Positions 1-28,565 of a stretch of 64,000 bases of DNA are shown piece by piece. Origin of the DNA: a virus; the IMG/VR virus record IMGVR_UViG_3300044695_005756, positions 30,519-94,518 of that record; one strand, written 5' to 3'. Positions within the stretch are counted from its first letter, which is position 1, and every line of letters starts with the position of its first letter. Made by a program: the position numbers and the translations under genes. The notes under the pieces were generated by a model. The model was not told the origin of the DNA, did not search any database, and worked only from the letters and a program-made list of their open reading frames with translations.

Positions 1-3000
1 GATACTTTTTGCCCTCTTACAGCGTTATAAGGAACAAAATGAATGTCGCCGTTTGGTGCAAGAACACCACCAGAATAAAGATTGGGATTCGCTGCTGATG
101 TTGTGTAAACTAATGCATATGTCGATGCAACACCATCAGCAGATATTTTTTGTCCTCTGTTTGCATTATACGGAACAAAATGAAGTTCACCATTTTGTGA
201 AAGAACTCCACCATAATATCCAAACGAAGTAGTATATGCCAATGCATACGTTGATATTATGCCATTCACGCCGTTATTATTAAACAATGAACCTCGATCA
301 ACATTTCTTTGCAGAGTTCTGTTTAAACTTATCTCAGCTTGCTCGGAAAGGTATTGTTCTATCGATGGATTAACAAGATCAGCATAATAAGTAGTCCCAT
401 TTGCAGCTGGATAAGATGCGGTAGTATCAGTAGAAACTAAAGTACCAGGTAAAGATTTTGGTAATATTGTAGCAGTTAAAGCTTTTTTCGCTTTTGTGAA
501 AACTGTTTGTCGTGATATGAGTTCGTATTTTCCAATTCCTAACGAATAACCAACGGGAACAAGTGATTGAGGATAAATTGAACTGGCATATGGAATAACA
601 TTTGAAGTGTCTGAAGAATCATGCGCTCGTCTTATAAGGACATTTGGTTTATTGACCAGCTTCATCCCATATCGCTGAGTAGTTTGTTGAATAAAATACA
701 CATCTCCAGATTCGGAAAGAACGCCTCCTTGATGAATACGCTGCAATATCGGATACGTTGATATTACACCAGCGGATGATATTTTTTGACCGACTTGTGC
801 GGAATCTGGAACAAAATGAACATCGCCTCGACTATCAAGAACACCACCACGGTATGCACCACTTCCAGAGGTAATTACTAATGAATACGTCGATACTACA
901 CCAGCGGATGATAATTTTTGTCCTCTGTTGGCAAAATAAGGAACAAAATGAGTGTCACCATTTGGTGCAAGAACACCACCCCAATAAGACGCACCAGCGG
1001 TATACACTAATGAATATGTCGATGTAACACCATCAGCAGATATTTTTTGTCCAACTCTTGCACTATAAGGAACAAAGTGTACGTCACCGTTTGGCGCAAG
1101 AACACCACCTTGATAAGCAGTAGCAGTTGTGTATACCAACGAATATGTTGAAACATAAATGGGCACACTTTCGTTAGTTAATAATTTCTGGCCTCTATTT
1201 GCATTGAAAGGCACAAACTGAACATCTCCACTAACATCAAGAACACCACCAGCATATGCAGCGGCTGTTGTGTACGCTAATGAATATGTTTGTACGATTC
1301 CATCGGAAAATATTTTTTGTCCTACTCTTGCAGAATCTGGAACAAAATGAATACTGCCATTACCGTCAAGAACACCGCCATCATATGCAGCGGTTGTTGT
1401 GTACGCTAATGAATATGTTGTAGGATATTGAGATAAAAATTTATTGAACTCTATAACTTGTCCAACTTCTGCTTCATATGGAGCAAGATAAAAGGTGTTG
1501 CCTGTACTATCCATGGCACCACCAAGGTATGGCTGATTGGAAGCTGTGTATGCTAATGCGTATGTTGATACAACACCATCAGAAGAAACTTTTTGTCCTA
1601 CTTTTGCATTATAAGGTGCAAAATGTATATCTCCATTATATGCTTTTCCGCCATAAGCATATGCACTAGAAGTTGTGTATACTAATGAATATGTAGACAC
1701 GACACCAGCAGAAGAAACTTTTTGCCCTCTGTTTGCAAGGAGTGGCACAAAATGTATATCTCCGTTGTTATCAAGAACACCACCCGAATATGCAGCAGTA
1801 GTAGTATACACCAATGAATATGTTGATACAACACCAGCAGAAGAAACTTTTTGCCCTCTGATCGCACTATAAGGAACAAAATGAACATCGCCGTTACTAT
1901 CAAGAACACCACCTCGATAAGCACCAGAAATCGTATATACCAACGAATATGTTGATATGATACCAGCGGATGATATTTTTTGTCCTCTTGTGGCAGAAAA
2001 AGGCACGAAATGAATGTCGCCATTGTTATCAAGAACACCACCATTGTATGCGGAACCAGCGGTTAATACTAATGAGTATGTCGATACGACACCAGCAGAA
2101 GAAACTTTTTGTCCAACTCTTGCACTAAAATTTACAAAATGAATATCACCATTGTTATCTAAAACGCCACCTTCATACGCATTAGTAACTGTATGAACCA
2201 ATGAAAATGTTGATACTACGCCAGCAGACGATATTTTTTGTCCTCTGTTAGCATCATTGGGTATAAAATACACATCACCATTATTATCAAGAACGCCTCC
2301 AGCATATGCACCACCAGACGTTGTATATACTAATGAGTAAGTTGTAGGATAGTGTTCAAGTGTGACATCAAATTGTAACTTTTGTCCTACTCTTGCACTA
2401 AAAGGTACAAAATGTGCTTCGTTATTGTTATTTAAAACACCGCCATCATATGCAGCAGAAGCGGTAGTATATGCTAATGCATATGTTGACACAACTCCTG
2501 ACGATGAAATTTTTTGCCCTCTAGCGGCACTAAGCGGAATAAAATGTACATCGCCATTCGGTGCAAGAATACCGCCAGCGTATGCAGTAATAGATGTGTA
2601 TACTAATGAATACGTCGATACTACACCAGCAGATGATAGTTTTTGTCCTATATCCGCATTATAAGGAACAAAATGTATATCATCGTTATTATCTAAAATA
2701 CCTCCTTTATACTTCGCAAGAGCGGTACTGTTTACTAAAGAGTATGTTGTTATAACACCAGCAGACGATATTTTTTGTCCTATGACAGCATTAAAGGGCA
2801 CAAAATGAATATCGTTATTACTATCTAAAACACCACCGTTATATGCATTAGTAGCTGTATACACCAATGAAAATGTTGACACGACACCAGCAGACGATAT
2901 TGTTAGTCCTCTATTTGCATTATAATTTACAAAATAAATGTCGTTATTATTTGCAAGAACACCACCAGAATATGCACCAGCAGTTGTATATACTAACGAA

Positions 3001-3632
3001 TACGTTGATGGAACTTGAGGTGCGAATCCATTTGGAGTTACTTTTTGTCCTCTGTTTGAATTATATGGCACAAAATATACATCGCCATTCGGTGCAAGAA
3101 CACCACCAGAATATCCAAAATTAGACGTTGTGAATATTAATGAGTAAGTTGTTATAACACCAGCAGATGATATCATTTGTCCTCTAGTGGCATTCCGAGG
3201 CACAAAATGTATATTACCAAGAGCGTCTAGAACTGCTGCACTCCAAAAATTAGCTCCAGATACTGAATAAGGATAAGTAAATACTGTACCATCTGTTGTT
3301 ATTCTTATTCCTCTATCACCATCTACATTTACAATATGAATTTCATTATTGCTGGTGCGAACTGCTCCCGCAAGCTCACTAACAGAGACAGAGGCTGTGC
3401 GGAGTGCATCATTATATGAATGAAGAACTTGAGGATAATCTACAAGAGTTGCTGTACCTACTTCCCATTTATCACCATCGACAATTGAATAGTCAAACTC
3501 ATCACCCATTGAATAGGTTGCAGCAGAAATTTTTTCGACATTGGCCGAACTCAATCTTATATTGGGTTCGAACGCATCTTCACGCTGTGAAAAAGTACCT
3601 GTTTGTGATCTATCTTTTACTTGGCGTGCCAT
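1..3632 (-). CDS. Giant beta-propeller repeat protein, paralog 3 (3' end runs off the window, >1210 aa); probable virion/tail-associated protein
   Basis: Not in the ORF track because there is no stop in the window. ATG at 3632 reads MARQVKDRSQTGTFSQ...WEVGTATLV, followed by ~44-aa repeats YxGGVLxxNGDVHFVPxxAxxGQKISSAGVVSTYSLVYT as in the two upstream genes. Confidence 0.85.
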   Translation of the reverse strand, partial: MARQVKDRSQTGTFSQREDAFEPNIRLSSANVEKISAATYSMGDEFDYSIVDGDKWEVGTATLVDYPQVLHSYNDALRTASVSVSELAGAVRTSNNEIHIVNVDGDRGIRITTDGTVFTYPYSVSGANFWSAAVLDALGNIHFVPRNATRGQMISSAGVITTYSLIFTTSNFGYSGGVLAPNGDVYFVPYNSNRGQKVTPNGFAPQVPSTYSLVYTTAGAYSGGVLANNNDIYFVNYNANRGLTISSAGVVSTFSLVYTATNAYNGGVLDSNNDIHFVPFNAVIGQKISSAGVITTYSLVNSTALAKYKGGILDNNDDIHFVPYNADIGQKLSSAGVVSTYSLVYTSITAYAGGILAPNGDVHFIPLSAARGQKISSSGVVSTYALAYTTASAAYDGGVLNNNNEAHFVPFSARVGQKLQFDVTLEHYPTTYSLVYTTSGGAYAGGVLDNNGDVYFIPNDANRGQKISSAGVVSTFSLVHTVTNAYEGGVLDNNGDIHFVNFSARVGQKVSSAGVVSTYSLVLTAGSAYNGGVLDNNGDIHFVPFSATRGQKISSAGIISTYSLVYTISGAYRGGVLDSNGDVHFVPYSAIRGQKVSSAGVVSTYSLVYTTTAAYSGGVLDNNGDIHFVPLLANRGQKVSSAGVVSTYSLVYTTSSAYAYGGKAYNGDIHFAPYNAKVGQKVSSDGVVSTYALAYTASNQPYLGGAMDSTGNTFYLAPYEAEVGQVIEFNKFLSQYPTTYSLAYTTTAAYDGGVLDGNGSIHFVPDSARVGQKIFSDGIVQTYSLAYTTAAAYAGGVLDVSGDVQFVPFNANRGQKLLTNESVPIYVSTYSLVYTTATAYQGGVLAPNGDVHFVPYSARVGQKISADGVTSTYSLVYTAGASYWGGVLAPNGDTHFVPYFANRGQKLSSAGVVSTYSLVITSGSGAYRGGVLDSRGDVHFVPDSAQVGQKISSAGVISTYPILQRIHQGGVLSESGDVYFIQQTTQRYGMKLVNKPNVLIRRAHDSSDTSNVIPYASSIYPQSLVPVGYSLGIGKYELISRQTVFTKAKKALTATILPKSLPGTLVSTDTTASYPAANGTTYYADLVNPSIEQYLSEQAEISLNRTLQRNVDRGSLFNNNGVNGIISTYALAYTTSFGYYGGVLSQNGELHFVPYNANRGQKISADGVASTYALVYTTSAANPNLYSGGVLAPNGDIHFVPYNAVRGQKV

Positions 3633-3635
3633 GTC

Positions 3636-6600
3636 TTATAACTTATTGAAAAATGGACTGAGAACAATTTCTGTATCCAATGGTCGACTAAATGTGTATA
3701 GTTTGTACTGAGTTGCATCATTACGAATCGCAATTATGTTTCCATCAAAATCTAAATTTGCTCCAATACAAAGTGGTGTTCCAGAAATCAAAGGTGATGT
3801 GATTAACGATTGTATGCCAGAAGGCGTAATTTTTAAAATACCTGATGTTCCATTATAAGGAACAAAGTATATGTTTCCTGCTGGATCTAAAACACCACTT
3901 TGAAAAGCACCAGCAGTTGTGTATACTAATGAATATGTAGACACAACACCAGCAGCAGAAACTTTTTGCCCTATAGTTGCAGAATGAGGCACAAAATGCA
4001 CATCGCCATTTGGTGCAAGAACACCACCAACGTAAGCATCGGCAGCAGTATATACTAAAGAGTATGTAGACACAATACCTGAAGCGGATATTTTTTGACC
4101 TACGATTGCGTTGCCTGGTACAAAATGCACATCGCCATTTGGTGCAAGAACACCACCAGCATATGTATCAGCAGCAGTATATACTAATGAATATGTTGAT
4201 ACAACACCAGCAGCAGAAACTTTTTGTCCGACTATCGCGTTGCGTGGAACAAAGTGAATATCACCATTTGATGCAAAGATGCCACCAATATATGCTAAAG
4301 ATGTTGTGTAAACTAATGCATATGTCGATACAACACCAGCAGCAGATATTTTTTGCCCTACTGTTGCGTTACACGGAACGAAATGAACATCACCATTCGA
4401 TGCAAGAACACCACCAGCATATGCATAATTAGCCGTTGTGTACACCAATGCATATGTTGATACTGCACCGTATTGAGATATTTTTTGACCTCTGTTAGCA
4501 CTATCTGGAACAAAATGAATATCACCATTAAGTGCAAGAACACCACCCCAGTATGCACTAGCAGTTGTGTATACTAATGAAAATGTAGACACTACAGGAT
4601 TTTTAAATGTTGTTCCTGCCGTAATACTCTTCATCCACGCTCTTTGAAGTCCTCTCCAAGAAGTCAACGTGGAATTAATTGATGAATCATCTCCTGTTGG
4701 AACAGCGCCTTGCACAACACTTGAAGGTAACGGTATGAATACGTCTTTTATTCCTGATGAAAAATTCACTTTGTCTGGAACATTGGCAGTTACATTAGAT
4801 GATGAAATGACTAAATCTCTACTCAATGTTGAAGCAAGTCTTTGTCCAACTGTTGATCCAAAAGGAACAAAATGTAATTCACCTTGTTTATCAATAACAC
4901 CACCGTTATATGCTAAACTGCCAGTCGAAGTAAGTGGATAAGTTGATACGACACCAGCAAGAGATATTTTTTGTCCAATTCCAGAATCGTAAGGAATAAA
5001 ATGAACTTCTCCATCGCGTGTTTGAATACCGCCACGATAGGCAGTACTGCCTGTATTTACCAATGAATACGTTGATACAACACCGTATTGAGATATTTTT
5101 TGTCCGACTGTCGCACTACTTGGCACAAAATGCACATCGCCGTTTCGTGCAAGGACACCACCGTCATATGCGCCAACAGTCGTATACACAAGTGAATAAG
5201 TTGATACGACACCAGCAAGAGATATTTTTTGTCCTCTGATAGCGTTATTTGGTATAAAATGTACATCACCGTTTGGCGCAAGAACACCACCAGCGTATGC
5301 ACCAGCTGCGGTAGTATATACTAATGAATATGTTGATACTACACCAGCTGATGATAATTTTTGCCCCCTATTACCGACAAAAGGAACAAAATGAACATCG
5401 CCGTTACTATCAAGAACACCACCTCGATAAGCAGTAGCAGTTGTGTATACCAACGAATATGTTGAAGAAAATATTGAGAAAAATTTGTTAAACTCCGCTA
5501 CTTGTCCTACTGTAGCAGAAGAAGGAACAAATTGTAATTTATTTTGGCCGTCTAGAACACCACCATTGTAATGTCCAGGTGAAGTTCGTACTAATGTATA
5601 TGTCGATACAACGCCAGCAGATGATATTTTCTGTCCTCTTGTAACACCATTTTGCACAAAATGTACATCGCCTCGACTATCAAGGACACCACCACGATAT
5701 GCACCACCTCCAGAAGTAATTACTAATGAATATGTTGATACTACACCAGCGGATGATAATTTTTGTCCTACTCTTGCTTCATAGTTTACAAAATGTATAT
5801 CACCTCGACTATCAAGAACACCGCCGGAAAAAGAGCGAACTGTGGTATACACCAATGAATATGTTGATACTACACCAGCAGAAGATACTTTTTGTCCTCT
5901 GTTTGCACTAAAAGGAATAAAATGAACGTCACCATTTCTGTCTAATACTCCACCAGAATATGCAAAAGATGCCGTATATACTAATGGGTATGTATAAGTG
6001 CCAAACTGATCCAACTTTAGTCCTACTCTTGCATTATAAGGAACAAAATAAATGTTTCCATTGCCATCATAAACACCTCCATCATAAGCACCGCCAACAG
6101 TATATGCTAAATCATAAGTTGATGCGACACCAAGGTAATTCACTTTTTGTCCTATGTCGGCATTATAAGGAACAAAATGAGTATCGCCTAAAAAAAGTCC
6201 ATCAAATACTCCTCCAGAATATGCATTCAAAGTGGTGTACACCAAATCATAAGTTGATACAACACCAGCAGATGATATCATCTGTCCTACAGACGCATTA
6301 AAAGGAGCGAAATGAATATCCTTTCTATCATTCAAAGCACCACCTTGATACGCTAAAGACACGGTGTAAACTAAAGGATATGTGCTAGAATAAACTTCGG
6401 GCGTGATATCGAACTGTAACTTTTGTCCTATACCAACACTATAAGGAATAAAATGCATTTCACCAAGACGATTTACTACACCCTCAAAATATGCACTATC
6501 AGCGGTATGCGCCAATGAGTATGTTGATACAACGCCGTATTGAGATATTTTTTGACCGACTTCCGCACTATAAGGAACAAAATGAACGTCAGCATTTCCT

Positions 6601-6863
6601 GAAATAGTTGGCGCAAGAACACCGCCTGCATAACCATTTCCAGTTGTGTACACTAATGAATATGTTACAGGAACTTGATACATTGATACTGTTCCTATTC
6701 CAACCTCAAAAGCATTTCGATCTTCGATTGTGTAATAAGTTTGATTATTATGACATACGTTCGCAAATGATTGATAACCTGAAACTGCGTAATCAAGTGT
6801 TACGTTTCCTGTTCCAGTTGTATTTGTTGTGACGAACGCTCTATCTAAAGCAACAAAAGCCAT
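3636..6863 (-). CDS. Beta-propeller repeat protein, paralog 2 (1075 aa; 14+7 blades)
   Basis: 21 copies of the ~44-aa YxGGVL..HFVP..GQK..STY repeat. N-terminus MAFVALDR..TTGTG..FEVGIGT resembles a common phage fibre N-terminal module. C-terminus LSPFFNKL. Confidence 0.85.
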   Translation of the reverse strand: MAFVALDRAFVTTNTTGTGNVTLDYAVSGYQSFANVCHNNQTYYTIEDRNAFEVGIGTVSMYQVPVTYSLVYTTGNGYAGGVLAPTISGNADVHFVPYSAEVGQKISQYGVVSTYSLAHTADSAYFEGVVNRLGEMHFIPYSVGIGQKLQFDITPEVYSSTYPLVYTVSLAYQGGALNDRKDIHFAPFNASVGQMISSAGVVSTYDLVYTTLNAYSGGVFDGLFLGDTHFVPYNADIGQKVNYLGVASTYDLAYTVGGAYDGGVYDGNGNIYFVPYNARVGLKLDQFGTYTYPLVYTASFAYSGGVLDRNGDVHFIPFSANRGQKVSSAGVVSTYSLVYTTVRSFSGGVLDSRGDIHFVNYEARVGQKLSSAGVVSTYSLVITSGGGAYRGGVLDSRGDVHFVQNGVTRGQKISSAGVVSTYTLVRTSPGHYNGGVLDGQNKLQFVPSSATVGQVAEFNKFFSIFSSTYSLVYTTATAYRGGVLDSNGDVHFVPFVGNRGQKLSSAGVVSTYSLVYTTAAGAYAGGVLAPNGDVHFIPNNAIRGQKISLAGVVSTYSLVYTTVGAYDGGVLARNGDVHFVPSSATVGQKISQYGVVSTYSLVNTGSTAYRGGIQTRDGEVHFIPYDSGIGQKISLAGVVSTYPLTSTGSLAYNGGVIDKQGELHFVPFGSTVGQRLASTLSRDLVISSSNVTANVPDKVNFSSGIKDVFIPLPSSVVQGAVPTGDDSSINSTLTSWRGLQRAWMKSITAGTTFKNPVVSTFSLVYTTASAYWGGVLALNGDIHFVPDSANRGQKISQYGAVSTYALVYTTANYAYAGGVLASNGDVHFVPCNATVGQKISAAGVVSTYALVYTTSLAYIGGIFASNGDIHFVPRNAIVGQKVSAAGVVSTYSLVYTAADTYAGGVLAPNGDVHFVPGNAIVGQKISASGIVSTYSLVYTAADAYVGGVLAPNGDVHFVPHSATIGQKVSAAGVVSTYSLVYTTAGAFQSGVLDPAGNIYFVPYNGTSGILKITPSGIQSLITSPLISGTPLCIGANLDFDGNIIAIRNDATQYKLYTFSRPLDTEIVLSPFFNKL

Positions 6864-6872
6864 AATTTTTCT

Positions 6873-9299
6873 TTAAAGTTTGTTTAAAAATGGACTAAGA
6901 CAAGCATTTACAGGCAAAGGATTAACCGAAAGCGTTGCAATTTTTTGTCCTACTACACCAGAAAAAGGTGCGAAGTATATATCACCGTTTGGCATAAGCG
7001 CACCACCGATATACGCACTTGCAACAACATACGGCAATGAGTATGTAGACACAACTCCAGAAGTGGATATTTTTTGACCTCTGTTGGCAGCAAATGGTAT
7101 AAAATGTACATCACCGTTTGGCGCAAGAACACCACCAGCATATGCAGTAGCGACAGTATAAACAAGTGGATATGTCGATACAGCGCCATCAGCAGATATT
7201 TTTTGTCCTCTGTTTGCTGAATGAGGCACAAAATTTATGTCGCCATTAACTGCAAGAACACCACCAAGATACGCAGCAGCAATACTGTACACTAATGAAT
7301 ATGTAGACACGACACCAGCGGCAGAAATTTTTTGTCCTCTGTTTGCATTAAATGGCACAAAGTGTACGTCACCGTTTGGCGCAAGAACACCACCAGCATA
7401 TGCGGTAGTGGCTGTGTATATCAACGAATAAGTCGATACGACACCAGATGACGATATCATTTGTCCTCTGTTAGCTGAGTAAGGTACAAAATGTATGTCG
7501 CCGTTCGGAGAAACAACGCCTCCAACGTAAGCATCGGCAGCAGTATATACTAAGGAGTATGTTGACACAACGCCTGAAGCATTTATTTTTTGACCTCTGT
7601 TAGCACTTCGCGGCACAAAATGTACATCACCGTTTGGTGCAAGAATACCGCCATAATACGCATTAGCGACTGTATGTAATAAAACATAAGTGGATGGAAT
7701 ACCCAACTTCGAAAGTTTTTGTCCTCTTACAGCGGAATGTGGCACAAAGTGTGTGTCACCATTTGGTGCAAGAATTGCTCCAGCATATCCAGAAGCAACA
7801 GTATATGGTAATGTAAATGTTGATGCGATACCAGCAGTATTCGCATTATCGTATGCATTTCCACCTAAAGCACTCTGTTCCAATAAACCTCTAAATGGTT
7901 TCCATCCTGATAAATTAGAATCGATTTCATTATTATCAAATGTTGGTACTCCACCGACAGCAATCGAATTTGGATATACGAGTGAAATGTTTGCCGATGT
8001 AGTTAGATTGCTAGGCGATAGATAAATTGCTTGTCCGTTGTTCGATGAATCGAAAATTTTATCTCTTGTAATCGCATTTACTAAAACTCTTTGTGCTGCC
8101 GTAGCACTATGATTTGCAAATATAATTCCAATGTCATTGTTTGATGACAACGCTCCACCAAATAAACCAGCGGTTGATGTTACTGCTAATGAATATGTGG
8201 TAAATATACCTAAACTTTGATCATATACAGTACCTACTCTTGCGCTATACGGAACAAAGTGAACATTACCATTTCTGTCCAATACTCCGCCGGCATATGC
8301 ATTTGTTGTTGTATAAGGTAATGGATATGTGGAACTTGAGACTAACGCAAGCATAACTGACGCATTATATGGAATACAATATACTTCACCAGGATAATTA
8401 GCAGAGAATGATCTCACTACGCCACCAATATATGCACCCGCTGTTGTGTACGGAAGACCATAAGTGGTTGCAATAAAATTGGCCATGTATTGCCCTACTT
8501 GTGCATTGAATGGAACAAAGTAGTTTCCGCCATTAACAGTATATCCACCTTGATATGCGCCTGCAGTAGTATATGCTAACGCCCAAGTTGATGCAATTGT
8601 ATTAGTAGTGTCAATTGTTTGTCCTACCGCTGCGTTATACGGAACAAAATGAATATAGTAAGGATATGTGACTGTATCGACAATTCCACCAGAATATGCA
8701 CCAGCAACTGTGTATGCTAAAGAGTATGTTGACACAATACCTGCCGATGATACTTTTTGTCCTCTGTTGGCATTATAAGGAATAAAATGTACTTCATTAT
8801 CCCCACCAAGAACACCGCCCTGATATGCACCAGCAACTGTGTATGTTAATGGATATGTTGATACAACACCTGCCGATGATACTTTTTGTCCTCTTGTGGC
8901 AGAAAAAGGCACGAAATGAATGTCGCCATTAGCGTCACGAACTGCTCCAGAATACGCTGTAGTTGCGGTTGCGGTAACGGCAAATGTTGAAACTATTGGA
9001 GATTTTCCGCGGTATGTTGCTTTTCCTATTTCCCATTCACCATTTTTAGGCTCAAGAGAATAATAAAACTCACTATTAAGACTTCCCGAATAATCATTAT
9101 CTACAAAAGCAAAATTTTTATATCCTGCAATCGTATAAGGTTTATACCCACTATAAGCTGGAATTCGTTCGTTATCGGTAAAGTTAGAAAAGTTTAAACC
9201 ATCAGGATTTACTGGAGATGGTGTGTTCGCAAGAACCAGTGTTGAATTGCCACCAGAAAAAGTATTTCCACGTGTTCTACTATTAAAAATTATCGTCAT
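6873..9299 (-). CDS. Beta-propeller repeat protein, paralog 1 (808 aa; 7+7 blades)
   Basis: 14 copies of the same repeat; C-terminus LSPFLNKL nearly identical to that of paralog 2. Confidence 0.85.
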   Translation of the reverse strand: MTIIFNSRTRGNTFSGGNSTLVLANTPSPVNPDGLNFSNFTDNERIPAYSGYKPYTIAGYKNFAFVDNDYSGSLNSEFYYSLEPKNGEWEIGKATYRGKSPIVSTFAVTATATTAYSGAVRDANGDIHFVPFSATRGQKVSSAGVVSTYPLTYTVAGAYQGGVLGGDNEVHFIPYNANRGQKVSSAGIVSTYSLAYTVAGAYSGGIVDTVTYPYYIHFVPYNAAVGQTIDTTNTIASTWALAYTTAGAYQGGYTVNGGNYFVPFNAQVGQYMANFIATTYGLPYTTAGAYIGGVVRSFSANYPGEVYCIPYNASVMLALVSSSTYPLPYTTTNAYAGGVLDRNGNVHFVPYSARVGTVYDQSLGIFTTYSLAVTSTAGLFGGALSSNNDIGIIFANHSATAAQRVLVNAITRDKIFDSSNNGQAIYLSPSNLTTSANISLVYPNSIAVGGVPTFDNNEIDSNLSGWKPFRGLLEQSALGGNAYDNANTAGIASTFTLPYTVASGYAGAILAPNGDTHFVPHSAVRGQKLSKLGIPSTYVLLHTVANAYYGGILAPNGDVHFVPRSANRGQKINASGVVSTYSLVYTAADAYVGGVVSPNGDIHFVPYSANRGQMISSSGVVSTYSLIYTATTAYAGGVLAPNGDVHFVPFNANRGQKISAAGVVSTYSLVYSIAAAYLGGVLAVNGDINFVPHSANRGQKISADGAVSTYPLVYTVATAYAGGVLAPNGDVHFIPFAANRGQKISTSGVVSTYSLPYVVASAYIGGALMPNGDIYFAPFSGVVGQKIATLSVNPLPVNACLSPFLNKL

Positions 9300-9308
9300 G
9301 TTATTTTA

Positions 9309-10661
9309 TCACGCTACTATTGGCTGAGTGGGTTCTACATTTCCAATTATAATACAACTTGTAGAACTAGTAAATATTACTGTTGCAATTCCTCTAGGAG
9401 AAAGAGGCGTATATGGAATATCATAATCATGTCCAGCCACAAATGCATTTGTAATGCTACATGTTATTATAACATCAGCACTTGTGTTATTGATGATTGT
9501 GATGACATCTCCATCCGCAAAAACTCCATTAGGAATAATAACTGATCCGCCTTCTTTTATACTTATATACTTTCCTATATCGGTTAAAGCTAATGTATAC
9601 TCTGAAGTTTTTTGTCCATTGAATGGTATATTTCTGAAGCCTACTGTAAAATCTTCGTCTGGAAAAGTTGCTGTTCTAGATGCAGTCAAAGTTTTTGGAG
9701 TTAGTGTCATGGTATATCCACCAGGTGCTGTTGAACCTCGAAGTGATATACTGTCATACCCAACTGCTCGTTGTACTTTTAGTCCGTTTGGATGTCTTAT
9801 GGTAACAGCACCCGTAACTATTCCACCATTGTTAGCGTCTAATGAGTTATTCGCACGAATAAATCCAGAATTCGCATGATTAAATGCTGCATTTGTATGA
9901 ATGTAAGCAGAATTCGCTTGAATGAATCCTGAATTCGCGTGAGCAAAAGCCGCATTGATTTGATCAAAACTTGAATTTGCGTGATCAAATGAAGAGTTAG
10001 TTTTTATGAATCCGCTGTTTGCATGATTAAATGCATAATTTGCGTGTAGATATGCGCTATTTGCTTGTATAAATCCAGAGTTGGCATGAATGAATGCTGC
10101 ATTTGCTTGTATGAATCCAGAATTGGCATGAATAAATGACGCATTCGTATCATGATAAGCAGAATTTGCTTGAATGAAACCTGAATTTGCGTGATCAAAC
10201 GCCGCATTTGTTTTTATGAATCCACTATTTGCGTGATTAAATCCAGAATTTATGTGGATGTAAGCGGAGTTTGCTTGAATGAATCCACTATTTGCATGAC
10301 TGAATGCCGGGTTAATTCTTTCAGCAAGTTGTAAAACATTTGCGCCTTTTTGATATAGTTCATTGGCGTAAACGTAAATGCTTGAGATATTTCTACCGAC
10401 TGTTAAGTCGAGCTGAATGGTTACATTGCTTTTATCAAAGTTCGTGTTTGCAATATTACCAGTATTTGCACGAAGTGTATTAATGTTCGCGTGATTACGA
10501 ACATTTAATGATGAGCCTGCTCCCTGAATAAAAATGGCAGAATTGGCAATGAAACCACCACTCGTATTACTTGTTAAGTTATTAGCGACTTCAATTAGAG
10601 AAGAGGTCGCTGATAACCATTCAGTAAAGTTATTAGAAGTTGAAAGTTGATTTATTGCCAT
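9309..10661 (-). CDS. Fibre-like virion protein with AN(S/A)(G/A)F(I/N/D)(H/Q) heptad repeats
   Basis: N-terminal NNFTEW motif typical of T4-like fibre anchors, long 7-aa repeat tract, globular C-terminal domain; paralog of 10677..12023. Confidence 0.7.
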   Translation of the reverse strand: MAINQLSTSNNFTEWLSATSSLIEVANNLTSNTSGGFIANSAIFIQGAGSSLNVRNHANINTLRANTGNIANTNFDKSNVTIQLDLTVGRNISSIYVYANELYQKGANVLQLAERINPAFSHANSGFIQANSAYIHINSGFNHANSGFIKTNAAFDHANSGFIQANSAYHDTNASFIHANSGFIQANAAFIHANSGFIQANSAYLHANYAFNHANSGFIKTNSSFDHANSSFDQINAAFAHANSGFIQANSAYIHTNAAFNHANSGFIRANNSLDANNGGIVTGAVTIRHPNGLKVQRAVGYDSISLRGSTAPGGYTMTLTPKTLTASRTATFPDEDFTVGFRNIPFNGQKTSEYTLALTDIGKYISIKEGGSVIIPNGVFADGDVITIINNTSADVIITCSITNAFVAGHDYDIPYTPLSPRGIATVIFTSSTSCIIIGNVEPTQPIVA

Positions 10662-10676
10662 TTTTTTATAAACTTG

Positions 10677-12023
10677 TTATGTGATACCTGATGTTATGCA
10701 ATAATTGGGCTCAAGGAACATTACTGTCGCAACTCCTTTTGGCAAAATATTTGCTGATGTGATGATCGTATCTTTGCCAGCTTTATATGCAGTAACTCCA
10801 TAAGTGAGACCCACATTCGCTGAAGAGTTGTTTACGATAATTACCACATCGCCGTTCGAAAACGGTTGAGTTGAGTAATTTGGAATATTTATATAAGTTT
10901 GTCCAAACCCTGGAGCATTGTCAGAAACTTCAATAAATTTACCAATTTCAGTCGGATTAATTGTAGCATTCTGATCGGCTAATGTTCGGGATATAGGCAC
11001 ATTTCTGAAGCCTACTTCAAAAGTTGAATCTGGAAATTCTACGGTTTTGTCAACCGTAAGAATGCCTCCACTCGTTAAAAGAAAATCATATGAAGCAGAT
11101 CCGCCTGATCTACCTTTAAGTTCTATGGAATCTTCTAATACACCGTTTTGAGATTTAACACCATCAACAGCCAGAATTGTTACAGCACCCGTAACTGTTC
11201 CGCCATTGTTAGCGTCTAATGAATTATTAGCACGAATGAATACAGAATTCGAACGATTAAAAGTTGCATTAGCGTGATCAAACGCTGAGTTTGTTTGAAT
11301 AAATCCACTGTTCGCGTTATTAAAAGCAGGCGCCATGTGAATCAAAGCATGTTCTACTGGTACATTCGCTACATTTATTTTAATAAACTGCGAATTCGCG
11401 TGAATAAATCCACTGTTTACATGATCGAACGCAGCATTAATTTGTATAAAATCGCTGTTCGCATGATAGAATGCAGAATTTGTTTGAATGAATCCACTAT
11501 TTGCGTGATTAAATGCATAATTTGTATGCAAATAAACAGAATTCGCTTGTATGAATCCAGAGTTGGCGTGAATAAACGATACGTTTGTTTGGTTAAATTC
11601 AGCATTTGCATGAATGAATGCTGAATTGGCGTGAATATATAATGAATTTGATTGTACGAATTGTGAATTTGCCTGATTAAATGCTGCGTTAGGCTCAACC
11701 AATATTCCAATAACATAAAAATTTTCACTATGTCCTTCGTCGGTAGATAAATTTCTTCCTACCGTTAAATCTAATGCTATTGATACGTTCGATCCATCAA
11801 TATTGGTATTTGCAATATTACCAGTATTTGCGCGAAGTGTATTAATATTCGCTAAAGTGCGAACATTAAGAGAAGAGTTTGCACCTTCAATAAAAATAGA
11901 ACTATTCGCTAAAAATCCACCGTTAGTGTTGTCGGTAAGATTGTTAGCGACCGCAATTAAAGAAGATGTTGTCAGCAACCACTCTTCAAAAGTGTTTGCT
12001 GACGAGACTTGATCTATTTTCAC
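10677..12023 (-). CDS. Fibre-like virion protein with heptad repeats (paralog of 9309..10661), GTG start
   Basis: ANTFEEW N-terminus, HANSGFIQ repeats, shared NNSLDANNGG junction. Confidence 0.7.
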   Translation of the reverse strand: MKIDQVSSANTFEEWLLTTSSLIAVANNLTDNTNGGFLANSSIFIEGANSSLNVRTLANINTLRANTGNIANTNIDGSNVSIALDLTVGRNLSTDEGHSENFYVIGILVEPNAAFNQANSQFVQSNSLYIHANSAFIHANAEFNQTNVSFIHANSGFIQANSVYLHTNYAFNHANSGFIQTNSAFYHANSDFIQINAAFDHVNSGFIHANSQFIKINVANVPVEHALIHMAPAFNNANSGFIQTNSAFDHANATFNRSNSVFIRANNSLDANNGGTVTGAVTILAVDGVKSQNGVLEDSIELKGRSGGSASYDFLLTSGGILTVDKTVEFPDSTFEVGFRNVPISRTLADQNATINPTEIGKFIEVSDNAPGFGQTYINIPNYSTQPFSNGDVVIIVNNSSANVGLTYGVTAYKAGKDTIITSANILPKGVATVMFLEPNYCITSGIT

Positions 12024-12254: not shown

Positions 12255-15200
12255 TTAATCTTGTTGTGTTGTAGTTTGAGCACCCTCAGACATAGGCAAT
12301 GCAATAACACGCAGTTGTGCAAACTTTGGAACATCAACAGATGTTGTTCCATACATAACCACTTTTATCGAAAATAAGATAAAATCATCTGCTATATTAC
12401 CATCTTTTTTGAGATATGAAACTCTATTATCCGCAGTACCAGAACCATAACGACCAGGAGCATATACCGCTTCAAAAAAGTCAACTGGATTTTTAGAGAA
12501 CAGATTTTGAGTTTCTGATAATTCAGTCATCAATTGATAGTCATTATCGTCAAAATTCGACGGATCAGTTTCAGACAATAATTTATAATAAACAAGAATT
12601 CCTGCACCAGGTGGACGATATGCATCCATGTAAACACGGAGATCACCTGCATCAAAACCTGGCGCCAACTTAACACGTTTGGTAATATAACGAATAGCTG
12701 AATTACCTCCAACAGAAGAATCTTCACCATTGTATTCGGCTGTTGCTGTAACTGCACCTCCAGTTTCAGGCGCATTCATCGTAATTGACGGCGATAGAAT
12801 ATACCCTGTTCCAGGATTCGTAATTTCAATACGAATAATTTTACCACTTGCAGCTTCATAAATGCCAACGGCAGCTGCGCCTTCCCCTTGAGCACCCGCA
12901 GGAGTTGTTGAAGGATAACTGAACGTAACTGTCGCATTTCCTGTATAACCTGAGCCTCCATTTGTAATAACAAATCCTGTATTCTGCAAAGGCATGTTGT
13001 TAATTTTGTTTTCAATTGTCAACAGATTTAAACGTGTGACATCGATCATTGGAGAAATATCAGGATTACTAGAAGATAATGATGCAATCAACTTAAATGT
13101 ATCATTACCTGATACAGTATTCAAGACTCTTCTACCGTATCCATCAACACATTCATAATCAAAATTAGGCACGATTCTCAATGGTGGATGAGGTTCTCCT
13201 AATTCAGGTTCAGAAATAAAATCATAAGTGACAGTTGTGTTCAGAATAGCTGCATCAGTTGACATTAATTGTAAAAGATCGAATGGAGTATTTGCTGAAT
13301 ATGGCGATAAATTCACATTAAAATTTGCGTATCCTTGAGCGGATGAAAACACTCTCTTTTGAATGCTGAACATAATGTCCGAAGTTTGATCCGCAGTCCA
13401 TGTTGATCCGTTTTGCGACAAGAATAGAGAACCCGTATATGGTTGTTCGGATATCTTATTCTGAGTTCGAATGTCCGTTGCACCTATTTCCGCAATATAC
13501 GTTTCATATCCATTACTGTTTGAAACAAGGACAAATGAATGTTCTCCTGGTAAAAGAAGCACAGGAGTTTCAAACTTAAATTCCGTATACTTACTTGAGT
13601 CAGTCAAATCAGGAATATCGGTTATAGTAACTTTGTCCGGAGTTAATGTTTTTTCCGCAAAAGGATAAACTACAGCCGATGATGGATAACCATTAACAAC
13701 AGGTCGAAGCTGACATGTTACAGGAATGGTTGAATCTTTTGTTTTAAAACAAACTCTAACCGAATCAATAACTACACCTTGAGGATATTGATTTGGATTA
13801 ATCAGGAATGTTTGTGCAAGAGGATCATAGTATCCAATAACAACATTGTTCTGTCTTGTCGAACTTGTTGCTGTTTTAACAGATGAAGTTGTTGCAGAGA
13901 ATTCTTCTGTAACTGTCGATCTTGTAACTGTAGGCACAAATACTGTAATTGTTTGTTCTTGTACAGTATTCACTCTACCTTCAGAGTAGAATTTTGTATC
14001 TCCGTTTGATCTTGAATTTTCCACGTTATTAAATTCGTCATCAATCAGACGGAAAATTTTCTCTCCTGTTCTAAAGATATCAGCAGGTATAAAGAATATT
14101 CCTGCAGTCAATCCTTCTTCAGTCGTTTCAAGTGTTCCGATTGTGTAAACTGAAGTTGTGTCTGGAGTTGTTCCCCACGAACCAGTGATTGTAACTACAC
14201 GCGTGGATGCATCATAGCCACTGATTGTGGCAACTTGTCCTTCACCTTTACCTCTTAAAATTCTAATCTGTTTTCCTACAATATAGCTAGATGCGGCTGA
14301 ATCTGTGTTTACTGCTCCGCCTGCACTATAGGCAAGAGTGATTGTGCTTGCACCGCCACCTAACGCAACACCAACTTGATGAGTCCATTTAAGAGTTCTT
14401 TCAAGTTCTTCTGATCTATCGCCCTTTACTGCGATTCCGTGTGTTGCATATTGTGACCAAGAACCTGCTGCTGCATCTGGATCCATATTCGCAATGAATA
14501 CGTTTTTACCACCTTGCAGTATGGCACCTCCTACTCCAATTTTTTTAGAAAATTTGTAGATAGTTCCATCAGCTTCAGTAAACGTATCTGTTCCAGCAAC
14601 GGTTGTTGGTTCCAGAGCATAGAAAGTTACTGTTTCGGCATCCGAAATTGTCGTTTTATATGACAGATCATTTTGTGTCATTTCAAAACGATTTACTTTT
14701 GCGATTCTATCATTGACATTTACATTGTCGAAGAACGCATTCAGAGTCGTAAATGGTTTAAACTTTTCAGCAAGTACCAACACTCTCTTTTCTCTCATGA
14801 ACTGAACCACGCTTATATCAACCAATCTATCACCCATTGATTGAGTTAATTCTTGTGGAACAATTTGCGATAAAATACCAGTTCTTGTTGCTTCTAAAGA
14901 AGATGTTTCTAAAGTTCTTTGTGTTGTGGTTGTAATTACATCACCTGTAGCTGCTATTCCACTACCGCCAACCACACTTCTGCCACCAGTCGCTTCAAAG
15001 TTAGCTTCTAACGCGCCTGATGCCCAACCTCCATTTACATTTACAACATCTCTGGTTGTTTTAGTATCTAATACTTTGGATGTAGTTGTCCATGTAGTAT
15101 CCCATGCACCCCAAGTGGTACTCTGAATTGAAGACCACGCATCCCTTGCAGCTTCACCTCCAGATAAATCGATATTCTGCGCTTCTAAACGAGTTTCTGA

Positions 15201-18200
15201 TTTCCAAACATCTGAAGTTGGATCAAGCCTTACTGTTCCAAGAAAGTTTACAATATTAAACGGATTAATATTCATTGTCTTTGATGCTCGATTTTGCATG
15301 ATGAAAGTAGTTTCAGTCGATGCAAGCATCAATAATGGTCCATTAATCTCAACTCCAGAATTTTCAGCTGGTGAAGACTGTATTAATGTGGATGCAATAT
15401 TATATGATCCGCGACATAAACGAGAAATTGTATCTATTGCGGCATCAAAGTCTGGTGAAATAATATCGGATACTTTTTTATTGGTAAACGAATCTACTAA
15501 AACACCATTTTTAGGTCTAGATATGCCATTTGAATCACGAACATTACGATCATTTTTACTTAAAATAGCAAGTTCCGCAAAAGACAAAGATGTATACAGT
15601 TCAAGATTTTGAATTCTCTTATCAAGTCTGCCAATATCTTGCATCGTATAACGTCTATGATTGTACGTTTGTATTAACGTAGATGATGTGAAAGTCAAAT
15701 ACGCGGGGTAAGTCAGCACATATAACGTCATTGAATCCGCTGGCTCTTCAGGAACAACTGGCTTAGATGCTGGGACACCTTGTAGTACCTGAAACTCTCT
15801 ACTCTTGTTTAATACAACACGATCTATTCTAGGCAAATAATATTCATAATCCATGAAGATATCTAATCCAGGTTCAGCAATTTGTGGACCAAGAACCGCT
15901 TCGTTTACACTTAAAACAAAATTATTTGCAAGATAGTCTGATGTTACGTTGGTAACAACAGCATTTGCTCCATCAACTCTAACTGGGCGAAAATCTAAGT
16001 AGTCTCTTAGATTTCTTGATTTGCCGTCTTGTGAACGATAATTAGGAATATTTCCATAATCAAATCCTGTTCCACCATCTTCATGTCTTCCGCCTCTTGT
16101 GTATGAGTCTACATCAAAATATCCAGAACCGTTTGACGTAAATCTATCGTAACGAATGAGAAGAGGACCACGTGGAGGATTTTGCCCCGGCTTCAACACG
16201 ATTCCTGACCAGTCGTAATATGAATCTCTTTGACCTGTGTCTAAAGAATAACGAGATGTTACATTCGAATAACTTCCCGAATTGTAGTTGGATGTTGTAA
16301 TTGCTGTGCCGTTAAAATCAAAAACAGCATTAATTGCATAAACATCTGTAACATAAAGATGTTGTGGAATACCAGGTTTTCTCTGAACAAAAGATTCATC
16401 GATGATTGTTTGACAGTCGAACGGCGAAACGAATGCTGAAGTATTACCAGAGAAGATTTTATACGGTTTTCTAGCTGATGTTGGATCGACAAGAATTGTA
16501 TTAGCTTTTACAAAAGTTTTTGTTTTTGACGTAGGAATAGAAGAACTTACAACCGCATAAATGTTTGCAGTCATATTTTCTCCAGCATCCACACTTATTG
16601 TTCGTGAAGATGTGTCTACAGAAAATTGCTGCGCTGGTATAGTTTTTCCTAACGCATGATGAGATCCTGAACCAGGATTAGTAACAACTATCTGATAATA
16701 TCTTTGTTTAGAATCAATCGTCGTTGCATCTTGTATTGTTTCTCCGATTCCAAGTGAAAGTGGCTGCGACACACCAGAAACAAATGATACGGATTGGAAA
16801 AGTTTTCTGTACGCAAAAGAAAAATCTCTAATCGTATTGTCTGCAACAAAAGCTTCGCCTATTCTAATTAAAAGAGGCTCTTTACCTGATTCTGCAATAT
16901 ACGCAGGTTGAAACATTCTATTATTTTTCAACGACTCATCTGTCGTTCCAATTTGCTCAATTTTACTTAATGGAGAAATATTTGCTGAAGCAACTATAGC
17001 GCCTGATGTATTTCTAACGATCACAGATTCCGCGTGTATTAAACCGCCAATAATCTGGAATCTTACGAGTCCATTGTTCATTGCGGTAACAGTATCATCA
17101 CGGAAAACTTTACCGCCAGCCGTTGTTGATTGTATGGTAACGTCTTGTGATGATGAACTCACTATAAGTTTCGTGAGGTTATCTTCGGCTGAACCAGAAC
17201 CTTGAGGAACACCATCAATTAGTTTAATGGACATTCCTTTGTATATGCTTGTATTTGATGGGAAAAGACTAGGAAGCCTAATCGTTGTGGTTGTACAACC
17301 AGCTCTTGTGTTACCAACTAAAGGATTAGAATTTAAACTAGTTACATATAGCTTATAAATGTAATTATTACTATCAAGTGTATTCGAAGAAACACTATAG
17401 AAACTTTGAAGTTTAATTCTACCAGTTGCTACGACCGAGTTTGAAATATTCGATCTGTTTATCGTAGCTAACGATGAAAGAACGAGTGGAAATGATTCTC
17501 CAGAATTATAGATAGAAAATTCTACGTTGCCGTACTGATTTGTCGCAAAATTTCCAAACATACTGTTTGCAAATAAGTAATATCCATAATCTACATCAAC
17601 TCTTTTATTTGTAATTGTTTCCGTTGTTCTAGGTTTAGGAACAGTTAGTATAATTGGAGCTGATGTTTGGAATTCATATCCTTTAACGTATGCTTTTCCA
17701 GAACCTAAACTGATATTAGCAAATGCATTGTTTGCCGTACTGTCAGTCAACTCTAGATTAAAACTTTTAACGATATAATCACCAGATTCATCTAATGTTC
17801 TTCTTGCGAATTCATCCCCAATAGCAGCATAAATTGGAGTCTGAACGATGTTTTTAGGATTACCTTCTTCCATAGTTCCCAACTCAATGAATTGAGTAAG
17901 GTCACTACTATCGATTGGACGTGTGTTTAGTACGAGAGAAACTTTATAACGATCTGCGCCTGGTGCTTGGAAATTTGATGAACCTTGTGCTGGATCTAAT
18001 AGTGAAGTGTCTTCTGTATAATCAATTAAACTTTCACTAACTTCGAATCCAACAATTGCATTTCCTGTGCGATCATACTTATTAACTGCAACACTTTGCG
18101 GTTGACTTTTAATGAAAAGTCCGTCATAATAAAAAACACCTTCATTTACAGAAAACGCTTGACAATTTCCTGTTACATTTGTTGATGCCAAATTTGCATA

Positions 18201-18656
18201 GAATGTCGCAACAGTAGGATCAGTATTTGATGTATAAATTGTTTCGCCATCTACGAAGCTATCTCCGTATAATTGATTGATAATGAACGTAATCGGTTCA
18301 TTTAATGTAGGTTCAGCACCGTAAGATTTTAAAACATACGCACGTTTAGTGTTCGCTGTATTGATAATTACTTGTTTATCAAAATTGGTGTATACAATAT
18401 CTTTACCGAAATATGTTGAAGATACATTCAAATACGCTGTATTTTGAATTGTTATTTGTCCACCAGTAACAATGGAGCCTGTTTTGAAAATATGATCGCC
18501 AAATTTTTTGATTTGATCCTGTAAGGTGCTTTGAAGCTGCGTCAACTCACGCGCTTGAACAGCATTTCCTGGCTTAAATAAAAGACGATAATAATTTTTA
18601 TTATCATTGAAATCGTCGTAATAAGGATCGGTATTAAAATTTGTAAGTAATGGCAT
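12255..18656 (-). CDS. VrlC-like / DUF4815-type large virion structural protein (2133 aa)
   Basis: N-terminal PYYDDF...LFKPG.AVQARELTQLQS, ARRTLDESGDY, YLPRID and DPLAQTF motifs; position after gp8. Confidence 0.85.
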   Translation of the reverse strand: MPLLTNFNTDPYYDDFNDNKNYYRLLFKPGNAVQARELTQLQSTLQDQIKKFGDHIFKTGSIVTGGQITIQNTAYLNVSSTYFGKDIVYTNFDKQVIINTANTKRAYVLKSYGAEPTLNEPITFIINQLYGDSFVDGETIYTSNTDPTVATFYANLASTNVTGNCQAFSVNEGVFYYDGLFIKSQPQSVAVNKYDRTGNAIVGFEVSESLIDYTEDTSLLDPAQGSSNFQAPGADRYKVSLVLNTRPIDSSDLTQFIELGTMEEGNPKNIVQTPIYAAIGDEFARRTLDESGDYIVKSFNLELTDSTANNAFANISLGSGKAYVKGYEFQTSAPIILTVPKPRTTETITNKRVDVDYGYYLFANSMFGNFATNQYGNVEFSIYNSGESFPLVLSSLATINRSNISNSVVATGRIKLQSFYSVSSNTLDSNNYIYKLYVTSLNSNPLVGNTRAGCTTTTIRLPSLFPSNTSIYKGMSIKLIDGVPQGSGSAEDNLTKLIVSSSSQDVTIQSTTAGGKVFRDDTVTAMNNGLVRFQIIGGLIHAESVIVRNTSGAIVASANISPLSKIEQIGTTDESLKNNRMFQPAYIAESGKEPLLIRIGEAFVADNTIRDFSFAYRKLFQSVSFVSGVSQPLSLGIGETIQDATTIDSKQRYYQIVVTNPGSGSHHALGKTIPAQQFSVDTSSRTISVDAGENMTANIYAVVSSSIPTSKTKTFVKANTILVDPTSARKPYKIFSGNTSAFVSPFDCQTIIDESFVQRKPGIPQHLYVTDVYAINAVFDFNGTAITTSNYNSGSYSNVTSRYSLDTGQRDSYYDWSGIVLKPGQNPPRGPLLIRYDRFTSNGSGYFDVDSYTRGGRHEDGGTGFDYGNIPNYRSQDGKSRNLRDYLDFRPVRVDGANAVVTNVTSDYLANNFVLSVNEAVLGPQIAEPGLDIFMDYEYYLPRIDRVVLNKSREFQVLQGVPASKPVVPEEPADSMTLYVLTYPAYLTFTSSTLIQTYNHRRYTMQDIGRLDKRIQNLELYTSLSFAELAILSKNDRNVRDSNGISRPKNGVLVDSFTNKKVSDIISPDFDAAIDTISRLCRGSYNIASTLIQSSPAENSGVEINGPLLMLASTETTFIMQNRASKTMNINPFNIVNFLGTVRLDPTSDVWKSETRLEAQNIDLSGGEAARDAWSSIQSTTWGAWDTTWTTTSKVLDTKTTRDVVNVNGGWASGALEANFEATGGRSVVGGSGIAATGDVITTTTQRTLETSSLEATRTGILSQIVPQELTQSMGDRLVDISVVQFMREKRVLVLAEKFKPFTTLNAFFDNVNVNDRIAKVNRFEMTQNDLSYKTTISDAETVTFYALEPTTVAGTDTFTEADGTIYKFSKKIGVGGAILQGGKNVFIANMDPDAAAGSWSQYATHGIAVKGDRSEELERTLKWTHQVGVALGGGASTITLAYSAGGAVNTDSAASSYIVGKQIRILRGKGEGQVATISGYDASTRVVTITGSWGTTPDTTSVYTIGTLETTEEGLTAGIFFIPADIFRTGEKIFRLIDDEFNNVENSRSNGDTKFYSEGRVNTVQEQTITVFVPTVTRSTVTEEFSATTSSVKTATSSTRQNNVVIGYYDPLAQTFLINPNQYPQGVVIDSVRVCFKTKDSTIPVTCQLRPVVNGYPSSAVVYPFAEKTLTPDKVTITDIPDLTDSSKYTEFKFETPVLLLPGEHSFVLVSNSNGYETYIAEIGATDIRTQNKISEQPYTGSLFLSQNGSTWTADQTSDIMFSIQKRVFSSAQGYANFNVNLSPYSANTPFDLLQLMSTDAAILNTTVTYDFISEPELGEPHPPLRIVPNFDYECVDGYGRRVLNTVSGNDTFKLIASLSSSNPDISPMIDVTRLNLLTIENKINNMPLQNTGFVITNGGSGYTGNATVTFSYPSTTPAGAQGEGAAAVGIYEAASGKIIRIEITNPGTGYILSPSITMNAPETGGAVTATAEYNGEDSSVGGNSAIRYITKRVKLAPGFDAGDLRVYMDAYRPPGAGILVYYKLLSETDPSNFDDNDYQLMTELSETQNLFSKNPVDFFEAVYAPGRYGSGTADNRVSYLKKDGNIADDFILFSIKVVMYGTTSVDVPKFAQLRVIALPMSEGAQTTTQQD

Positions 18657-28131: not shown

Positions 28132-28554
28132 TTATCTAATTCTCTCTAAAAAGAAATCAATCGTAACTGGATTTGGATTGTTGATAATGAAAAAGGTTAA
28201 AGAAATACTATATCCATTATCTTCGGGATACCCTGTTGCGCTGATACTTAAAATACTTACTCTAGGTTCATAGTTTGAAATTGTGTCATTTATAGCTGTT
28301 TTAATTTGTTCTGCCACAATTGGATCAACATTTTCAAATAATAAGCTTCGTAGACCACTTCCAATTTCTGGTCTAAAAGGTTTTTCGTAATAACTTAAAG
28401 ACATTAAATTTTTCACAGAATTGATTACAGCATATTCATTAATATTTTTTGTAACGTCTTTTTTAATAGGATGCATGTTAAAGTTCAAATCGAGGTCTTT
28501 GAAACCTCTCTCTGAAGAAATTCTTGGATTCGCTGTTGTGATAGTGGTAGCCAT
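28132..28554 (-). CDS. gp25: Baseplate wedge subunit gp25
   Basis: FKDLDL, EKPFRPEIGS..LLFE, YEPRV motifs. Confidence 0.93.
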   Translation of the reverse strand: MATTITTANPRISSERGFKDLDLNFNMHPIKKDVTKNINEYAVINSVKNLMSLSYYEKPFRPEIGSGLRSLLFENVDPIVAEQIKTAINDTISNYEPRVSILSISATGYPEDNGYSISLTFFIINNPNPVTIDFFLERIR

Positions 28555-28565
28555 TTATTATTTAT

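Follow-up and report, generated by a model that had tools for sequence, protein, structure and literature searches.

Phage structural proteins can carry accessory binding domains in their loops, as with the carbohydrate-binding modules that interrupt 'evolved' Dit and similar tail proteins of siphophages. The current study examined a 64,000-nucleotide stretch of viral DNA (positions 30519-94518 of the 94.5-kb IMG/VR record IMGVR_UViG_3300044695_005756, hereafter the window), in which three tandem paralogous genes, referred to as genes 1, 2 and 3, encode proteins whose N-terminal anchor module is interrupted by 7, 14 and 21 beta-propeller blades, respectively. The lengths of the junctions between blades make it likely that the 14- and 21-blade arrays consist of seven-blade rings inserted within one another. 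Dit-type insertions involve another host domain and other cargo, and show neither recursion nor a graded series of paralogs.

The propellers found here resemble those of the Vgb/streptogramin B lyase family (PF24684; structures 2qc5, 2z2n, 2z2o and 2z2p), which also have seven blades of ~43 amino acids (aa); however, Vgb lyase is a free enzyme, while here two to four copies per chain occur in fibre-module proteins, some of them inside another domain. The N-terminal module is the same as that of podophage tail-fibre proteins of the Venkman gp58 type, where it is uninterrupted, whereas here it is split at the tip of a hairpin. Non-tandem arrangement of same-fold repeats has been described for the Si3 insertion of the cyanobacterial RNA polymerase beta' subunit, in which several SBHM copies are assembled from chain segments that lie far apart, all within one loop of a host domain (PMC10895346). 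As proposed here, the Si3 repeats are not in simple tandem, although nesting is solved there and predicted here, and Si3 consists of small sandwich-barrel motifs in a cellular enzyme, compared to ~300-residue propellers in a putative virion protein. A literature search covering ~8.4 million papers and preprints returned no description of the protein family, the insertion socket, propeller-bearing phage fibres, or propellers nested in propellers.

Blade counts and the split anchor module

Genes 1 to 3 are adjacent minus-strand open reading frames (ORFs) that occupy window positions 3-9299, with gaps of 9 and 3 bases between them. Gene 3 is open at the window edge (1210 aa within the window), runs 724 nucleotides past the window start, and encodes 1451 aa in the full record. 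Blades were counted with a 43-aa profile hidden Markov model (the repeat HMM) built from the seven repeats at the C-terminus of gene 1, and gene 2 residues 1-760 were modelled with AlphaFold2 (AF2). The genes and their parts are as follows, in window coordinates.

6873..9299, minus strand: gene 1, 808 aa; a single 7-blade propeller interrupts a diverged anchor module, and a linker and a C-terminal 7-blade propeller follow
8076..8996, minus strand: inserted propeller of gene 1, residues 102-408, 7 blades (repeat-HMM matches and VIA-align to 2qc5)
6876..7829, minus strand: C-terminal 7-blade propeller and LSPFLNKL tail of gene 1, residues 491-808 (repeat HMM, Pfam)
3636..6863, minus strand: gene 2, 1075 aa; 14 blades interrupt the anchor module, and a linker and a C-terminal ring follow
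6675..6863, minus strand: first half of the gene 2 anchor module, residues 1-63 (profile positions 1-62; MAFFT; AF2)
4836..6674, minus strand: 14 inserted blades of gene 2, residues 64-676 (repeat HMM)
4596..4835, minus strand: second half of the gene 2 anchor module and linker helix, residues 677-756 (profile positions 63-97; AF2)
3639..4595, minus strand: C-terminal ring of gene 2 (6 detected blades and a degenerate seventh) and LSPFFNKL tail (repeat HMM)
3..3632, minus strand: gene 3, residues 1-1210 of the 1451-aa protein; 21 blades interrupt a diverged anchor module, after which come a 132-aa linker and the first part of a C-terminal ring
657..3410, minus strand: 21 inserted blades of gene 3, residues ~75-992 (repeat HMM)

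The repeat HMM identified 7 + 7 blades in gene 1, 14 + 6 blades in gene 2 (plus a degenerate seventh C-terminal blade at residues 1017-1060), and 21 + (4 + 2) blades in gene 3, where a degenerate stretch of 59 residues separates the last two groups; E-values for individual blades were mostly 1e-14 to 1e-30. The original prediction, made from the sequence alone, had read inserts of 7, 14 and 21 repeats in the three paralogs, and these counts were reproduced, with a repeat of 43 aa in place of its ~44. It had also given both complete genes exactly seven C-terminal repeats, which is correct for gene 1 and holds for gene 2 only if the degenerate blade is added to the six detected. The LSPF(F/L)NKL endings of these two genes were found as it stated (the gene 3 tail is YFNGNL), and the C-terminal block that it saw beginning in gene 3 proved to continue, with 4 + 2 blades, in the full record. 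The 28-blade paralog that it proposed to look for beyond the window does not exist in the full 94.5-kb record, nor was any other fourth paralog found, since every other ORF has at most two weak repeat-HMM matches. The three proteins score 82.3, 65.9 and 108.2 bits, respectively, against the Pfam family Vgb_lyase (PF24684; gathering cut-off 50), and PHROGs contains no family for them or for the N-terminal module.

The insert of gene 1 provides the reference for a single ring. The AlphaFold model of this protein (4-row alignment, mean predicted local distance difference test [pLDDT] score 51, no module fold) was usable for the inserted ring alone, which can be superposed along its whole length on streptogramin B lyase 2qc5 (VIA-align Z 32.4, root mean square deviation [rmsd] 2.4 Å, 289/298 residues, model range 100-408; repeat-HMM block 102-408) at ~14% identity to Vgb lyase. 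As modelled, the gene 1 insert is one complete seven-blade propeller, in agreement with the original prediction.

Searches with tblastn using the 63 residues of gene 2 that precede the blades and the 86 residues that follow them identified an uninterrupted module of ~100 residues in small podophage tail-fibre proteins, namely gp58 of Methylophilales phage Venkman (QLF88133), a protein of phage 023Pt_psg01 (URG13109) and a tail fibre of record MW202481 (UOF77525, Manatee Spring), which bears out the original statement that the module is contiguous in other phage fibre proteins. The podophage genes carrying the contiguous form adjoin tail-tube and tail-fibre genes, and the module has the motif DR..T.TTGTG ... 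WEVG.GT ... LSR..V..SSN ... VNF..G.K.VF. A profile built from these three modules matches gene 2 in two pieces, with positions 1-62 falling on residues 1-~60 (E 4e-19) and positions 63-97 on residues 677-715 (E 9e-8), in the correct order and with abutting profile coordinates; the relatives P0010, P0012 and P0007 give two-piece matches of the same kind. When aligned with MAFFT, 44 contiguous homologs fall on gene 2 residues 1-58 and 677-718. The AF2 model of gene 2 has a pLDDT of 83-93 in the module halves (83-93 over residues 10-60 and 83-92 over 680-710), with long strands at residues 52-62 and 677-688 and a helix at 734-745. These two strands and the split alignment therefore place the insertion point at the tip of a beta-hairpin, which in the contiguous form reads GT-Y-T-x-S-G-T-T-LSR and takes inserts between G-x-G-T and (T)LSR. 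Here the module is split by 307 to about 920 residues.

Contiguous modules have no Pfam family (no match at E<=1), and neither phmmer nor a profile search identified a relevant PDB chain for the module at E<=10. A likeness to the N-terminal domain of T7 gp17-type tail fibres was considered, but no sequence similarity was detected at these thresholds (Pfam E<=1; PDB E<=10).

Junctions within the 14- and 21-blade arrays

Junction length was measured from the C-strand motif (GQ) of one blade to the D-strand motif (STY) of the next at 2331 junctions in 408 single rings. This junction is 11 residues long in 94% of cases and at least 14 residues long in 0.73%. Junctions of 15 residues occur exactly twice in gene 2 (following blades 2 and 9) and exactly four times in gene 3 (following blades 3, 8, 15 and 17), while the remaining junctions of both arrays are 9-11 residues long. 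The extended junctions are listed below.

6378..6425, minus strand: gene 2 junction c1, residues 147-162, QKLQFDITPEVYSSTY, after blade 2; 15 aa compared to the canonical 11; AF2 pLDDT below 50 at residues 151-158
5457..5504, minus strand: gene 2 junction c2, residues 454-469, QVAEFNKFFSIFSSTY, after blade 9; AF2 pLDDT below 50 at residues 446-478
3000..3047, minus strand: gene 3 junction c1, residues 196-211, after blade 3
2337..2384, minus strand: gene 3 junction c2, residues 417-432, QKLQFDVTLEHYPTTY, follows blade 8; homolog of gene 2 c1
1413..1460, minus strand: gene 3 junction c3, residues 725-740, QVIEFNKFLSQYPTTY, follows blade 15; homolog of gene 2 c2 and kept in the partial ortholog L096
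1143..1190, minus strand: gene 3 junction c4, residues 815-830, after blade 17; kept in L096

These junctions divide the arrays into segments of 2, 7 and 5 blades (gene 2) and of 3, 5, 7, 2 and 4 blades (gene 3), which can be assembled into sevens only as rings within rings: blades 3-9 inside a ring of blades 1-2 and 10-14 in gene 2, and blades 9-15 inside 4-8 and 16-17, in turn inside 1-3 and 18-21, in gene 3. By simple counting, ~8% of random junction placements in gene 2 and ~1% in gene 3 would parse into sevens. Junctions c1 and c2 of gene 2 (QFD... and EFNKF...) are the homologs of c2 and c3 of gene 3, and in both genes exactly seven blades lie between the paired junctions. In addition, the 770-aa protein L012_770, a seven-blade ortholog of gene 2, reaches its highest alignment score (935) once blades 3-9 are taken out of gene 2, compared to 859-888 for the tandem alternatives. 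Position-specific blade profiles trained on 207 rings also prefer the nested split, which scores -3.8 bits in gene 2 compared to -15.1 for the tandem split and exceeds the tandem split by 22 bits in gene 3.

Ring-in-ring nesting is therefore the likely arrangement of both arrays, as far as it can be read from their sequences. Each host ring would accommodate a complete ring within the C-D junction of one of its blades, and this step would be repeated in gene 3. The inserted arrays start with a D-type (outer) strand and end with a C-type strand, so that a ring could close on itself by pairing of its first strand with the last blade; the chain would thereby return to its starting point, joining its ends as a hairpin socket or a C-D loop requires.

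The original prediction had envisaged propellers stacked in series, and ordinary tandem rings (blades 1-7, 8-14 and 15-21) borne on the same hairpin, with the 15-residue junctions as mere surface loops, are the foremost alternative to nesting. Such arrays of the same 43-aa unit do exist: P0006, P0008 and P0009 (1345-1361 aa; rings 7-7-7) and L098:1581-4532 (rings 7-7) carry 14 or 21 serially arranged blades starting at the N-terminal methionine, followed by an unrelated C-terminal domain of ~430 aa in the first three and ~300 aa in L098. These proteins share multiples of seven with genes 2 and 3, but their arrays lie at a free N-terminus and involve no socket. Their long junctions (19-44 aa) are found after blade 7 in P0006, P0008 and P0009 and also after blade 14 in P0006 and P0009 (that position is unmeasurable in P0008), whereas in genes 2 and 3 junctions 7/8 and 14/15 have the canonical 11 residues and the long junctions lie at positions that parse only as nested rings. 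Blades 7 and 14 are strongly disfavoured by the closing-blade profile, both ortholog mapping and blade profiles prefer the removal of blades 3-9, and AF2 confidence collapses at both connectors of gene 2 (151-158 and 446-478) with no dip at the 7/8 boundary (residues 373/374). Serial rings would nevertheless be compatible with the hairpin if the two closing blades met, long junctions can occur within one ring, as in an ortholog of gene 1, and the blade-profile outcome for gene 3 is indecisive. Taken together, a serial arrangement appears doubtful.

The prediction that whole propellers multiplied by duplication of the unit was not supported. The inserts are indeed multiples of seven; however, blade-to-blade identity and offset scans showed no similarity peak at a distance of seven blades in either long array, and the DNA repeats are only 60-82% identical. 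Global pairwise alignments were noisy.

The hairpin as a socket in related phages

Thousands of relatives were found when a word-indexed search was combined with a HMMER scan across all 1.84 billion representatives. Complete rings have exactly seven blades in the ~250 relatives examined, in line with the multiples of seven that the original prediction had suggested looking for. Related viral contigs keep the triplet of tandem paralogs at the same place, while the content of the hairpin varies from gene to gene. For the three genes in order, the hairpin contents are as follows.

L018 and L019: empty, empty, empty
L015/L022: empty, Laminin_G_3, Laminin_G_3 (concanavalin A [ConA]-like lectin domains)
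L012/L014: 7, 7 and 0 blades
Source phage: 7, 14 and 21 blades

All of these related triplets, which belong to uncultured myophages, share the N-terminal module, the linker, the C-terminal seven-blade ring and the synteny of genes 1 to 3, including a methyltransferase-domain gene after them; their socket is empty or holds Laminin_G_3 or a single propeller, and none holds 14 or 21 blades. The inserted domain of one relative was identified as Laminin_G_3 with an E-value of 7e-20. Since the same hairpin can be empty or hold a lectin-like domain or a propeller, it is a plug-in socket for accessory domains. The triplets with contents (0, 0, 0), (0, LamG, LamG) and (7, 7, 0), where LamG denotes Laminin_G_3, also indicate that the 1-2-3 ladder of the source phage is not a rule of the family, and on the contigs compared the ladder is confined to the lineage of the source phage. 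The sole other contig with a long array, L096/L176, carries a partial ortholog of gene 3 (87% identical; ratio of nonsynonymous to synonymous substitution rates, dN/dS, 0.30, a sign of constraint), and L096 keeps junctions c3 and c4. A search with the DNA pattern of the EFNKF junction returned nothing further in the viral collection, and among the matches listed for metagenome contigs there were only chance matches. Misassembly of the repeat arrays was also considered and ruled out on the grounds that the DNA repeats are 60-82% identical and that the architectures recur in independent contigs.

The contiguous N-terminal module itself is very common in viral contigs (at least 599 pattern matches). 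At loci L044-L095 it heads proteins of 114-1280 aa with varied C-terminal parts, among them module-only proteins of 126 aa. A class of ~716-aa relatives (P0016-P0125) has a different insertion site near profile position 38-40 (a GNGN turn), which accommodates ~255 residues with sub-threshold Pfam matches of the SGL/lactonase propeller type; the module would therefore have two sockets.

The three proteins are best interpreted as receptor- or glycan-binding fibres, given the position of the module in podophages and the occurrence of a lectin domain as alternative cargo. Genes 1 to 3 would be paralogs that code for receptor-binding fibre proteins in a T4-like myophage from water; in these proteins the N-terminal module would attach the protein to the tail, as its place in podophage tail fibres suggests, and a conserved linker with a helix would join it to a C-terminal propeller of the virginiamycin-B-lyase fold. 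This seven-bladed ring could serve as the receptor- or glycan-binding head, with extra domains plugged into the tip of one hairpin of the module. By blade count, sockets with 7, 14 and 21 blades plus the C-terminal ring would give two, three and four propellers per protein.

It is also conceivable that the propellers are enzymes, i.e. depolymerases of the lyase or lactonase type that act on a polymer of the host surface, with each additional ring contributing catalytic sites. The nearest fold and the Pfam family are those of Vgb lyase, an enzyme, and some relatives are named 'sugar lactone lactonase YvrE' or 'streptogramin lyase' in their sources. However, identity to Vgb is only 14%, the ConA-like lectin domain that can take the place of the propellers in the socket points to binding, and all blades share one near-identical scaffold, as would be expected of lectin-type propellers. 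An enzymatic role is consequently regarded as unlikely.

Proposed architecture and its setting in a T4-like phage

Structure prediction had been suggested as a check on the seven-blade rings, and for the 14-blade array it did not return clean 7 + 7 rings. The AF2 input for gene 2 residues 1-760 contained 44 contiguous homologs but only 2-3 rows over the blades, as the 716-aa class (which misplaced module residues 37-60), the LamG rows (which aligned onto the blades) and 40 ring fragments (which spoiled the module) were left out. The best model has a pLDDT of 68 and a predicted template modelling score (pTM) of 0.41, and the other four models score lower. Blades 1-9 were modelled as a ring of about nine blades accompanied by five further blades (9 + 5), an arrangement that is neither nested nor a tandem 7 + 7. 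The ~9-blade ring matches the designed Cake9/10 propellers over residues 67-449 (Z 25.9, rmsd 3.4 Å, 338 residues aligned). This match would suit larger or unequal rings or an open superhelix, with multiples of seven reflecting duplication history, but such arrangements are very unlikely given the low pTM, the thin alignment over the blades and the lower scores of the other models, the absence of any counterpart to a five-blade remainder of 43-aa Vgb-type blades among ~650 counted rings (all seven-bladed), and the clean seven-blade ring formed by the single insert of gene 1.

The interpretation of the three genes as fibre proteins with a socket and nested rings of seven blades has, in addition to the 9 + 5 model, several other observations to contend with. 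The nested parse of gene 3 ranks 12th among 100 models, and the tandem controls were not recovered by the blade-profile test, which is a weak one. Junctions of 14-21 aa (three measurable) occur inside the single seven-blade insert of a gene 1 ortholog. The host ring of gene 2 is split 2 + 5 and the middle ring of gene 3 is split 5 + 2, opposite divisions that prevent gene 3 from being simply gene 2 plus one wrapping ring. Finally, contact between the module halves is read solely from AF2 confidence, and the module profile matches genes 1 and 3 weakly (E 0.004-0.07); the split module proposed for all three genes is matched clearly in gene 2 and loosely in the others, in keeping with the earlier remark that the match is loosest in the third gene. 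Considering the evidence on both sides, this interpretation as a whole seems somewhat more probable than its negation. A stronger proposition is that the genes represent a natural recursion series, in which a propeller enters the anchor hairpin, a second enters the first and a third enters the second, giving four domain-in-domain levels in gene 3 and graded arms made from one 43-residue unit. Such nesting would be imposed by the socket, as the chain can get back to its start only through a ring that closes on itself. The arguments for and against this recursion series appear evenly balanced.

The virus record is estimated to be ~51% complete. The triplet is preceded by two paralogous, heptad-rich fibre genes and by members of the baseplate wedge, hub and tube-cap families. 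The best cultured matches of the baseplate wedge gene (window 26072-28129), at ~40% identity, are from Melnitz, a myophage of OM43 (Methylophilales), and from Mosig and HTVC008M, both myophages of SAR11 (Pelagibacter). On this evidence the source phage belongs near the OM43/SAR11 T4-like myophages, as an uncultured T4-like aquatic myophage. Directly after the triplet, outside the window (record 28423-29766, minus strand), a 447-aa protein is encoded, whose ortholog (L012:15145-16488) has a C-terminal methyltransferase domain (Methyltransf_23/11); this synteny is kept in related phages.

Two tandem paralogs of 450 and 448 aa (window 9309-10661 and 10677-12023, minus strand) are found directly upstream of the triplet. 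They have long runs of (H/Q)ANS(G/A)FIQANSA-type repeats, a C-terminal domain in common and weak PHROG tail-fibre matches, and are probably fibrous shafts. Between the fibre and baseplate wedge genes, a 2133-aa protein (window 12255-18656, minus strand) matches phrog_358, a family of unknown function, with an E-value of 0.

These observations describe a fibre design in which a defined socket in a widespread anchor module takes whole folded domains, either a lectin or, by blade count, one to three propellers, and this socket could be a natural template for studying modular fibre architecture. If the nesting is true, it would be a rare case of recursive insertion of the same fold, and because intermediates with zero, one, two and three rings all survive in related genomes, its evolutionary path would be directly testable. 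With regard to phage ecology, the three genes suggest that surface recognition is multivalent in abundant, uncultured T4-like relatives of the phages infecting OM43 and SAR11.

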